The notes under the pieces: model-generated
Database searches by the model: none
What the model was told of the DNA's origin: nothing
Seen by the model: the letters and a program-made list of their open reading frames with translations, nothing else
Program-made: the position numbers and the translations under genes
In this document: positions 40,414 to 41,311 of the stretch, piece by piece
Numbering within the stretch: the first letter of the stretch is position 1
How the letters are laid out: each line of letters starts with the position of its first letter
Virus record (IMG/VR): IMGVR_UViG_3300006931_000029
Coordinates: 93,124 to 157,123 of that record
Strand: one strand, 5' to 3'
Source: a virus
DNA length: 64,000 nucleotides

Positions 40414-40436
40414 ACCATGAAATCCGAAAACTAGGT
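40414..40436 (+). other. conserved leader CCATGAAATCCGAAAACTAGGTT: ATG-AAA-TCC-GAA-AAC-TAG in frame with ORF 40456..40680
   Basis: 20/22 nt identical to 40925..40947; TAG 40432-40434 in the same frame as ATG 40417 and GTG 40456. Confidence 0.5.
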
Positions 40437-40455
40437 TCCTACCGTCGCCGATGAG

Positions 40456-40680
40456 GTGACGTTCCACTTCAACAAGGCCCATCTCACGGACTCCACGATT
40501 CCGATGTGGGTTCTCAAGTTGAAGGGTCAAACCTACTACGTTTCGCACGTTTCGTCCACGGCTCCATGGAGCACCAAGGAAACGCCTGACAACCCTGCTA
40601 CCAAGGGTTCTCTCAAGTTCAAGAAGGTCGTGGTCTCAATCCACGACGGTGAAGCGGTCATCGAACCGATTGCCGCATGA
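40456..40680 (+). CDS. hypothetical protein (GTG start; possibly extends to ATG 40417 through an in-frame amber codon)
   Basis: 74-aa ORF from track; upstream in-frame ATG-5 codons-TAG-7 codons with no other stop. Confidence 0.45.
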   Translation: MTFHFNKAHLTDSTIPMWVLKLKGQTYYVSHVSSTAPWSTKETPDNPATKGSLKFKKVVVSIHDGEAVIEPIAA

Positions 40681-40689
40681 ACCAATTTT

Positions 40690-40785
40690 GGCAGAGTCGC
40701 CGAACGGTGAGCCGCAAGGCTCTTCAGGCCCGGGTGTCCGGAAGGAGACTCGTCTATGTAGGTTCGAATCCTACCTCTGCCTCCA
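40690..40785 (+). ncRNA. tRNA-like element (96 nt) with canonical acceptor and T-arm and encoded CCA but no canonical anticodon arm
   Basis: acceptor GGCAGAG/CTCTGCC perfect 7 bp, T-arm GTAGG-TTCGAAT-CCTAC, discriminator T, CCA; exhaustive hand search found no 5-bp/7-nt anticodon stem-loop; CCGG-GTGT-CCGG hairpin internal. Confidence 0.35.
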
Positions 40786-40787
40786 AT

Positions 40788-40919
40788 TTCCCTGTAGCTC
40801 AGAAGCTTTGCGAAGTCGCCCGCAGATCACGGGATGACGACGCAAATACCGTCGGCAACGACGAGGTAGAGCGGCCGGTTCTAACCGGAGTGTCGCTGGT
40901 TCAAATCCAGTCAGGGACT
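40788..40919 (+). ncRNA. degenerate tRNA-like element (about 132 nt) with about 62-nt insertion in D-loop
   Basis: TAGCTCAG...GGTAGAGC D-arm identical in stems to tRNA at 39458; anticodon-like hairpin CCGG-TTCTAA-CCGG (6-nt loop containing CTA); T-arm GCTGG-TTCAAAT-CCAGT; acceptor 6/7 bp. Confidence 0.25.
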
Positions 40920-40924
40920 TAATT

Positions 40925-40947
40925 TCCATGAAAGCTGAAAACTAGGT
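40925..40947 (+). other. conserved leader TCCATGAAAGCTGAAAACTAGGTA: ATG-AAA-GCT-GAA-AAC-TAG in frame with PTH2 ORF
   Basis: TAG 40943-40945 in the same frame as ATG 40928 and GTG 40970. Confidence 0.5.
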
Positions 40948-40969
40948 AGATGAAACGCTGAGGCTCTAC

Positions 40970-41311
40970 GTGATCCTCAGAAACGACGCTGGAATGACGC
41001 CCGGCAAGATGGCTAGTCAGGCATCTCATGCGGCGGTTCAAGCGAGCCTGGACTGCCTGGGCAGAGCCCCGGATCGATTCAAGCGGTATCAAGACGGAAC
41101 CTTCGGCACGAAGGTCGTCCTCCACGCTGACGAACTCAAGATGCGCTGGCTCTTTGAGCTGGCGACTGAGCGTCAGATTCCCTGCGCCCTGATTGAAGAC
41201 AGCGGCCATGCCGCGTTTCACGACGGGCGCCCAACCACCACCGCACTCGGCATCGGTCCCATTCAACGGCACGAGATGCGAGAGCTGAAGAAACTGGAGC
41301 TCGTCAAATGA
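40970..41311 (+). CDS. peptidyl-tRNA hydrolase, PTH2 family
   Basis: ILRNDAGMTPGKMASQASHAAV (PTH2 [21 protein letters not shown]), KVVLHADE, ALGIGP; SD-like GAGG 8 nt before GTG 40970; may extend to ATG 40928 via amber codon. Confidence 0.65.
   Translation: MILRNDAGMTPGKMASQASHAAVQASLDCLGRAPDRFKRYQDGTFGTKVVLHADELKMRWLFELATERQIPCALIEDSGHAAFHDGRPTTTALGIGPIQRHEMRELKKLELVK

Follow-up and report, generated by a model that had tools for sequence, protein, structure and literature searches.

An early in-frame UGA autoregulates prfB, the gene for release factor 2 (RF2), whose translation escapes the stop by a +1 frameshift, and arfA is regulated by its own non-stop mRNA. This study describes a comparable arrangement in a 64,000-nt stretch of viral DNA (IMG/VR record IMGVR_UViG_3300006931_000029, positions 93,124 to 157,123; hereafter the window), where two adjacent genes each carry an in-frame amber codon (TAG) a few codons behind an ATG, downstream of a gene for a suppressor tRNA with the anticodon CUA, or tRNA(CUA). 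Gene 1 belongs to a family of small proteins designated here by the motif FHFNK, and gene 2 is predicted to encode a PTH2 peptidyl-tRNA hydrolase. In the favoured reading, which is held with good confidence, translation of both genes would be suppressor-dependent, starting at the upstream ATG and continuing through a maintained amber at codon 6 (the gate) that tRNA(CUA) would read. At the level of sequence conservation, the comparisons show the TAG to be under purifying selection as TAG, the sequence downstream of it to be translated, and the suppressor tRNA gene to be physically linked.

The likeness to prfB and arfA lies in a conserved 5' in-frame stop that makes a translation-quality-control factor report on stop decoding, and a conserved early in-frame stop that would need to be bypassed is found here in both genes and family-wide; in prfB, however, the bypass is a +1 frameshift and the product itself reads the stop, whereas here the frame would be kept and a suppressor tRNA would do the reading. 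Engineered amber switches likewise use an early TAG to make a product strictly dependent on a dedicated tRNA(CUA), the difference being that the present cassette is natural, conserved and apparently under selection. The bar minigenes of phage lambda are similar in being very short open reading frames (ORFs; ATG plus 1-6 codons plus a stop), a known source of peptidyl-tRNA drop-off, but they stand alone, with no downstream gene in their frame.

For phages that use genetic code 15, in which TAG is read as Gln, suppressor tRNAs have been proposed to time the expression of late genes (bioRxiv 10.1101/2021.08.26.457843; PMC9523058). Those phages share with the present locus a phage tRNA(CUA) that decodes in-frame TAG in a standard-code host and an expression proposed to depend on the suppressor. 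They differ in carrying many TAGs within many of their structural genes and lysis genes, in having dropped TAG as a terminator and in their low coding density under table 11, whereas here a single TAG stands at codons 2-7 of one or two small genes beside the tRNA and the remainder reads under table 11. Suppressor tRNAs are also present in many standard-code phages, and the papers on XacN1 and Atu_ph07 could not give their purpose (PMC5852040, PMC6102473): the XacN1 authors read through the ends of ORFs only and reported no additional similarity (PMC5852040), and the Atu_ph07 authors noted merely an abundance of UGA stops and found no suppressor target (PMC6102473). Whereas those papers leave the suppressors orphaned, N-terminal gates are proposed here as targets of such tRNAs. 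A full-text literature search of incomplete coverage turned up no account of gate codons at the N-terminus that are tied to suppressor tRNAs of phages.

Two genes with an early amber codon and their close relatives

Read directly, gene 1 runs in one frame throughout from the ATG at 40417 through AAA TCC GAA AAC to the TAG (40432-40434), then through seven sense codons (GTT CCT ACC GTC GCC GAT GAG) to a GTG at 40456 and on to a TGA at 40678-40680. Gene 2 repeats this layout, again in one frame, with ATG at 40928, AAA GCT GAA AAC, TAG (40943-40945), eight sense codons (GTA GAT GAA ACG CTG AGG CTC TAC), a GTG at 40970 and a TGA at 41309-41311. An earlier note on this DNA had described exactly such a series of ATG, four codons, TAG, sense codons and GTG in both genes, and had placed a single suppressor tRNA gene 0.9-1.4 kb upstream; both descriptions hold, ARAGORN and Rfam agreeing that the gene at 39458-39533 is the sole tRNA(CUA) of the window. 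The two leaders, CCATGAAATCCGAAAACTAGGT and CCATGAAAGCTGAAAACTAGGT, are identical at 20/22 positions, third positions included, and share the tetranucleotide CTAG; the identity given in the note is thus correct, its quoted strings being off by one base against their coordinates, which is trivial. With up to three mismatches allowed, the pattern ATGAAANNNGAAAACTAGGT matches only these two sites in the 64 kb, the expectation from shuffles being 0.15 and two occurrences being reached in 1/100 shuffles.

The tRNA(CUA) of the window folds into a canonical cloverleaf with a short variable loop, G73 and an encoded CCA (ARAGORN), and in the phage database it comes closest to the tRNA(CUA) that Sinorhizobium phage Phosso encodes, annotated as tRNA-Pyl, and to a mycobacteriophage tRNA-Trp. 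ARAGORN gives the name Pyl to any CUA tRNA. A tRNA-Pyl has a small D-loop without GG, a 3-nt variable loop and a 6-bp anticodon stem, whereas in the ARAGORN drawing of the tRNA here the D-loop contains GG, the variable loop has ~4-5 nt and the T-loop reads TTCGATT. No pyl genes were noticed, no search having been aimed at them. The suppressor probably uses a host aminoacyl-tRNA synthetase.

The lineage to which the window belongs is represented by five genomes, namely the window itself (source genome L252, Logan SRR5451359), the 87-kb JGI contig L111 (gene 1 88% identical), L250, L251 and the IMG/VR contig L014 (PTH2 75% identical). The series ATG, four or five codons, TAG, GTN is kept in both genes of all five (10/10). 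The leader peptides of genes 1 and 2 are MKSEN and MKAEN in the window, MKTEN and MKTEN in L111, MKTDN and MKTEN in L250 and L251, and MNNES and MNIAEP in L014, so that all but the L014 pair follow the pattern MK[STA][ED]N. The changes among the leaders are synonymous or conservative (AAA/AAG, ACC/ACT, AAC/AAT, GAA/GAG, GTA/GTT/GTC) and differences in leader length are whole codons, indicating that the frame and the TAG are conserved rather than a nucleotide string. The L014 leaders, ATGAACAACGAATCGTAGGTC and ATGAATATCGCAGAACCATAGGTT, retain the frame, ATG and TAG and differ in nucleotides, and in gene 1 of L014 no ATG, GTG or TTG occurs between the TAG and the conserved FHFNK. Both L014 and L111 have a tRNA(CUA) of their own. 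The likeness of the two leaders within a genome (MKxEN in the window, L111, L250 and L251) suggests shared tuning of the local context or gene conversion.

General recoding of TAG is absent from the window and the related loci. Under table 11, 81 greedy ORFs cover 92% of the window and terminate in TGA (42), TAA (33) or TAG (6); TAG has therefore not been abandoned as a terminator, and no TAG with a clear coding signal on both sides was found across the window. A scan for ATG, up to 15 codons, a stop and at least 60 open codons returned 8 TAG sites in the window, of which only the two leaders were judged plausible because these alone lead into genes with homologues. Internal stops in the related loci (TAG 52, TAA 85, TGA 55) are no more often TAG than the other codons. 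The many internal TAGs of code-15 phages are thus lacking in the window and the related loci, as is their low table-11 coding density in the window, while the phage-encoded tRNA(CUA) typical of them is present. As a side observation, TAG is rare as a terminator here, and after three of its six uses another TAG stands in the same frame 1-2 codons on (30403-30408, 53696-53701 and the ORF ending at 57967), a tandem TAG TAG closing the gene that starts at 53297; such doubled terminators could guard against read-through in a genome with an amber suppressor.

Putative gate codons and suppressor tRNA genes across the two families

Homologues of gene 1 fall into 385 database clusters with a near-invariant core, FHFNKxHLxDxxIPMWVxKxKGxTYYVxHV....PWSTKETPDNPxTKGSLKF. 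Gene 1 has no match in Pfam or PHROG, and the family is nearly absent from cellular genomes, with five short contigs of metagenome-assembled genomes among 185,579 species genomes scanned; it is essentially an uncharacterised, phage-only family. The AlphaFold2 model of gene 1 (predicted local distance difference test, pLDDT, 94.3) has no significant structural neighbour, and its first strand, residues 3-13, covers the residues encoded between the TAG and the GTG.

In a first survey, comprising the best 80 IMG/VR loci plus the window, 78/81 loci carried an ATG, 1-9 codons (the ATG counted) and an in-frame TAG 6-10 codons ahead of FHFNK; the other three have an ordinary start, with no stop until far upstream. 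A Shine-Dalgarno (SD) sequence usually precedes the ATG and does not follow the TAG. Deduplication left 145 distinct genes, in which the first in-frame stop met upstream was TAG in 142, TAA in two and TGA in one, with the TAG nine codons ahead of FHFN in 124 genes and the span from ATG to TAG being two codons in 80 and three to four codons in 45. The earlier note had named conservation of the TAG in related genomes as a check on its reading, and that check is passed both within the lineage and across this wider set. Among these 142 genes, A follows the TAG in 127, G in 14 and C in one. A scan of all loci for SD, ATG, up to 10 codons, a stop and at least 60 open codons gave 81 TAG, 8 TAA and 13 TGA.

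Substitution of the gate by a sense codon was sought with two DNA patterns, and neither scan found a homologue with a sense codon in that column. A degenerate pattern that admits TAG, TAA, CAG or CAA at the gate gave TAG in 120/120 of the matches listed. The complementary pattern, in which the first base is not T, returned 16 loci; ten of these have a TAG 1-4 codons further upstream and the other six have lost the entire N-terminal piece, with no codon substitution. The nine codons behind the TAG encode a conserved I-E-[YF]-A-C-K-[DE]-V-V, and their entropy is 0.56 bits at the first codon position, 0.42 at the second and 1.17 at the third; no ATG, GTG or TTG occurs within the first seven of them in 122/124 genes. 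This stretch therefore bears the marks of a coding sequence and yet lies beyond the reach of a later start.

A tRNA(CUA) was found within the fetched flank of 106/142 TAG-bearing loci, on the same strand in every case, upstream of the gene in 99 loci (median gap 314 nt) and immediately downstream in seven; it is frequently the sole tRNA in 10 kb. The cultured Rhizobium phage RHph_I1_18 has an SD sequence, ATG AGT GAG TTC ATG TAG AAC and so on, and a tRNA(CUA) 18 nt past the stop codon of its FHFNK gene. The acceptor bases of the linked tRNAs vary, and so does the discriminator base, which among the first 50 distinct ones is A73 in 33 and G73 in 10, the Trp-like tRNA of the window among the latter; best matches by similarity are scattered over Thr, Met, Leu and Trp tRNAs with low scores.

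Some members of the family have departed from this layout. In L234 (~5630-5780) and its equivalents in L236 and L249, the FHFNK gene possesses a new start that lacks the gate, MPKINQGKIMIEL..., and a remnant leader, ATG TTG TAG ATT, lies ~120 nt upstream, separated from it by an insertion with a terminator-like hairpin; the tRNA(CUA) is retained upstream of the ungated genes, at ~600 nt in L234 and L236 and ~800 nt in L249. In Agrobacterium phage Atu_ph07 and in Phosso the FHFNK domain forms the C-terminal part of an ungated protein of ~175 residues, encoded two genes downstream from gated PTH2 and next to a metallophosphatase gene; a metallophosphoesterase gene also lies near the window genes (42196-42795). 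The FHFNK protein has a C-terminal extension of ~100 residues in 46 loci. One large sublineage has recurrent neighbours within ~3 kb: a peroxiredoxin resembling AhpC occurs in 35 loci, a CxxC protein resembling AhpD in 30, and a protein of 267 residues with a zinc ribbon at its C-terminus in 39, examples being L054:2923-3463, L174:5744-6257 and L051:5834-6638; the AhpC and AhpD labels are sequence motifs read by eye rather than the outcome of a family search.

Gene 2 matches PF01981 with 67.4 bits (cut-off 23) over residues 12-120 of the read-through protein, and matches the PDB PTH2 chains 2zv3, 1q7s, 1rlk and 1xty with E values of 8e-13 to 2e-6, as expected of a PTH2 peptidyl-tRNA hydrolase; the assignment by sequence is firm. 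The earlier note had proposed that the extension contributes LRLY to this second, PTH2 gene, and both the Pfam and the PDB alignments do begin at the R of LRLY, three residues ahead of the GTG codon: it is R12 of the read-through protein in the former, and in the latter R6 pairs with residue 2 of the archaeal PTH2 2zv3. Since the homology extends upstream of the GTG, a start there would truncate the first strand.

An N-terminal in-frame stop occurs in three PTH2 sublineages, which are the lineage of the window, the pair L031 and L062, and a jumbo-phage clade to which Phosso, Atu_ph07 and ten contigs from IMG/VR, up to 480 kb in length, belong. The PTH2-like genes of L031 and L062 begin MK*... 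and MA*..., and the FHFNK gene is ungated in both loci. In Phosso and the ten metagenomic contigs, PTH2 reads SD, ATG, 3-7 codons and TAG, and in this clade the stop is separated from any later start codon by 33-50 conserved codons, the next ATG lying inside a conserved ...GDLEMTAGK and being the start annotated in GenBank. A tRNA(CUA) is present in the fetched locus of 8/10 of these contigs, and Phosso encodes one too. The PTH2 of Atu_ph07 has TGA at the equivalent place where the rest of the clade has TAG, and the single suppressor tRNA of that phage has the anticodon UCA (PMC6102473). No other single argument for a reading of the gate by the suppressor tRNA is as strong as this match between gate codon and anticodon. 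The PTH of XacN1 has an ordinary start and no gate, and the gate is therefore not universal among suppressor-bearing phages.

As to the residue inserted at the gate, glutamine was considered because homologues reading MAQIEL or MLQIEK correspond to the viral MA*IEL and ML*IEK. This was rejected, since the DNA has TAG at that place and the Q is an artefact of table-15 gene calling on it. The earlier note had aligned the amber of gene 2 with a Leu of the gene at 53297. That alignment has not survived, the 53297 family having an invariant sense Leu and no amber, and the comparison is therefore uninformative on the inserted residue. Of 480 ORFs that start with ATG, none resembles the PTH2 leader more closely than that gene, whose N-terminus, MKPANLVDQML (53297-53329), has 6/10 identities against 4 for the next best, and in its homologues L6, V7 and L11 are invariant and no stop codon occurs; the likeness may reflect shared ancestry of an N-terminal motif or chance.

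Other elements near the two genes

The coordinates of the two genes, the suppressor tRNA and other elements are collected in Table 1. The promoter-like motif ahead of gene 1 is one of seven exact copies of TTTGTTTACA among the eight window matches to the looser pattern TTNNTTTACA, against 1.04 expected. Several copies that were checked lie directly upstream of ORF starts, and L014 and L111 have the motif at the same place ahead of gene 1; it probably serves as a promoter element of the phage. A promoter scan gave no sigma-70-like promoters within 38800-41600.

Table 1. Features of the window that bear on the two amber-interrupted genes
Feature	Position	Strand	Basis or remark
Suppressor tRNA, anticodon CUA	39458..39533	+	ARAGORN; Rfam tRNA 65.8 bits
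Gene 1, predicted true start and leader codons M-K-S-E-N	40417..40431	+	Peptide-level conservation
Gene 1, in-frame amber codon TAG (putative gate)	40432..40434	+	Kept in 5/5 lineage genomes and 142/145 distinct family members
Gene 1, remainder, 81 codons + TGA	40435..40680	+	Small all-beta protein, 'FHFNK...WSTKETPDN' family
Gene 2 (PTH2), predicted true start and leader codons M-K-A-E-N	40928..40942	+	Peptide-level conservation
Gene 2, in-frame amber codon TAG (putative gate)	40943..40945	+	Kept in 5/5 lineage genomes
Gene 2, remainder, peptidyl-tRNA hydrolase PTH2, 121 codons + TGA	40946..41311	+	PF01981
Promoter-like motif TTTGTTTACA	40365..40374	+	~45 nt upstream of gene 1 ATG
Copies of TTTGTTTACA	16521, 31035(-), 36798(-), 38889, 40365, 58133(-), 59916(-)		Window pattern scan
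tRNA-like RNA between the two gated genes	40690..40785	+	ARAGORN 'tRNA-Glu(ttc)', 96 nt; Rfam tRNA 31.6 bits, cut-off 29

The tRNA-like RNA between the two genes is 94-96 nt long; its acceptor stem is perfect, and a T-arm and an encoded CCA are present, with no credible anticodon arm. Counterparts occur at L014:3297-3392 and L111:4234-4327 (called 'tRNA-???' by ARAGORN in L111), and compensatory changes among the three genomes support hairpins with GCAA and GGAA tetraloops in place of the anticodon arm. In L250 and L251 a DUF6165 gene takes its place. The adjoining segment 40793-40918, which neither ARAGORN nor Rfam calls, resembles by eye a decayed tRNA: its acceptor halves are TCCCTG...CAGGGA, an insert of ~63 nt parts the D-arm halves GCTCAG...GGTAGAGC, the T-loop reads TTCAAAT, and the 6-nt 'anticodon' loop, TTCTAA, includes CTA. 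The segment may have been left by a second suppressor gene. Elsewhere in the window, two ORFs on opposite strands overlap almost completely (31101-32897, minus strand, 598 codons; 31476-32918, plus strand, 480 codons), and likely only one of them is a gene.

Competing explanations and the possible meaning of the gate

The best explanation is that both genes start at the upstream ATG, and the amber-gated expression through a phage tRNA(CUA) that the earlier note had put forward is supported as the one reading that appears to fit the comparative data. An alternative that shares its premise is that the TAG is efficiently read as an ordinary sense codon without any gating, a frozen accident tying the genome to its suppressor or a case of tRNA hitch-hiking. 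Conservation in the lineage and the family, the coding stretch, the tRNA linkage and the match of codon to anticodon fit this equally, since read-through is needed in either case, and co-expression is to be expected of a tRNA and a gene that mostly lie side by side in one orientation. Reversion would, however, be expected over the divergence sampled (protein identity down to ~55%, GC content 27-54%), and none was seen: CAG or CAA stands at the gate in 0/120 of the matches listed, and the 16 loci lacking the T have either shifted the TAG upstream or lost the N-terminal piece. A gate has also arisen or been kept independently in three sublineages of the unrelated PTH2, always at codons 3-8, and the alternative is unlikely. 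It is very unlikely that the ATG...TAG unit is instead a separate mini-ORF, encoding a leader peptide or acting like a lambda bar minigene, with the downstream protein made by reinitiation or from a non-canonical start. Leaders of 2-7 codons do have the length of minigenes, ATT directly follows the TAG in 113/124 family members, and one gated gene encodes a peptidyl-tRNA hydrolase, an enzyme that counters minigene toxicity. Any stop would serve such a unit, yet TAG was found in 142/145 genes, with TGA used solely in the phage that has tRNA(UCA) (PMC6102473), and the adjacent tRNA(CUA) would be left unexplained. Nor does a ribosome-binding site with a start of its own follow the leader stop: the SD spacing suits the ATG that it precedes, no reinitiation start was found behind the TAG, and the codons next to it (GTT, GTA or GTC in this lineage; ACT, AAT, AAA, CAA or GAA elsewhere) are not initiators. 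The upstream-ORF or leader-peptide alternative offered in the earlier note fails because a start behind the TAG is usually absent although the stretch is conserved as protein, as are the 33-50 codons of the jumbo-phage PTH2.

The same note had allowed for function at the RNA level. As weighed here, the shared motif would be an RNA or DNA regulatory element (a protein-binding site or a structure) in which the in-frame TAG is incidental. The near-identity of the two window leaders, third positions included, and the CTAG in both would suit such an element, but relatives retain the frame, ATG and TAG and not the nucleotides, as the two L014 leaders illustrate, and L111, L250 and L251 differ by synonymous changes; indels among the relatives are of whole codons. 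Folding energies of the 100-nt stretches around the TAG were unremarkable (z = 0.35, -0.40, -1.49 and 0.80) and disclosed no conserved RNA structure. A scan of IMG/VR viral contigs for exact ATGAAANNNGAAAACTAGGT gave 13 scattered, unrelated matches, which a rough estimate for 17 specified bases suggests are probably chance, the nucleotide motif then being lineage-specific. Because the leader nucleotides vary among relatives and no structure stands out, this alternative fails too and is highly improbable. That the stops mark pseudogenes or sequencing or assembly errors can be given almost no weight: the stop codon itself, and the fact that GenBank annotators skipped or truncated the genes, would be in keeping with it, but over 140 independent assemblies, together with three cultured phage genomes, have this one codon at this one position, and the sequence downstream of it is under strong purifying selection. 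Some observations do weigh against suppressor-dependent translation. In 36/142 loci the fetched flank yielded no tRNA(CUA), which may lie elsewhere in the genome or have escaped detection; the linked tRNAs are highly diverse, with 110 distinct sequences and no clear isoacceptor ancestry; the GTG 7-8 codons behind the TAG in both window genes means that a truncated product could also be made; and where ATT follows the TAG, rare initiation at AUU is possible, which does not apply to the window with its GTT and GTA.

Under suppressor-dependent translation, release factor 1 (RF1) and the suppressor would compete at the amber codon. Where RF1 wins, only a pentapeptide would be released, and where the phage tRNA(CUA) wins, the products would be complete, a beta-protein of 87 residues and a PTH2 of 127; because of this competition, the output of both genes would track the capacity for UAG read-through, that is, charged suppressor versus RF1. 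Other members of the family would likewise yield a peptide of 2-7 residues if RF1 wins and the full protein if the charged suppressor wins. With the gate at codons 2-7, the aborted product would be small and cheap, and the purine 3' of the TAG would favour suppression, as work by Bossi in 1983 and by Miller and Albertini in 1983 is said to have found for a 3' purine.

As to the purpose of the gate, we infer by analogy with prfB and arfA that a peptidyl-tRNA-recycling enzyme and a small factor may be coupled to suppressor activity. Peptidyl-tRNA drop-off is known from the literature on lambda bar and Pth, and we infer a link between PTH2 and suppression in which the read-through of normal stops, together with very short ORFs, would yield drop-off that the enzyme resolves. 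More speculatively, and with considerable doubt, the tRNA(CUA) and the gated beta-protein (plus PTH2 in some lineages) might form a self-contained, phage-restricted cassette that both senses and sets how UAG read-through and RF1 termination are balanced in an infected cell, the small protein acting on termination or on the suppressor; such a cassette would be a natural target of orphan suppressors and a plausible seed of code 15.

The gated genes are systematically mis-annotated, as at L232:584-600, L233:153-170, L094:2975-3222, L096:1372-1866 and L095:1432-1881. The FHFNK gene is absent from the GenBank record of RHph_I1_18, and the PTH2 genes of Phosso and Atu_ph07 begin in GenBank at an internal Met within the conserved domain. 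Metagenome gene calls render the gate TAG as Q under table 15 or start at a GTG just ahead of FHFNK, and the table-15 Gln translation can mislead the inference of genetic codes.

Overall, the finding offers concrete, conserved targets for the suppressor tRNAs of standard-code phages, in the form of a single gate codon at the start of neighbouring genes, and the question of their purpose therefore becomes testable in the cultured phages RHph_I1_18, Phosso and Atu_ph07. The gate would represent a natural example of a tRNA-dependent translational switch, and it suggests an intermediate stage towards full stop-codon reassignment.

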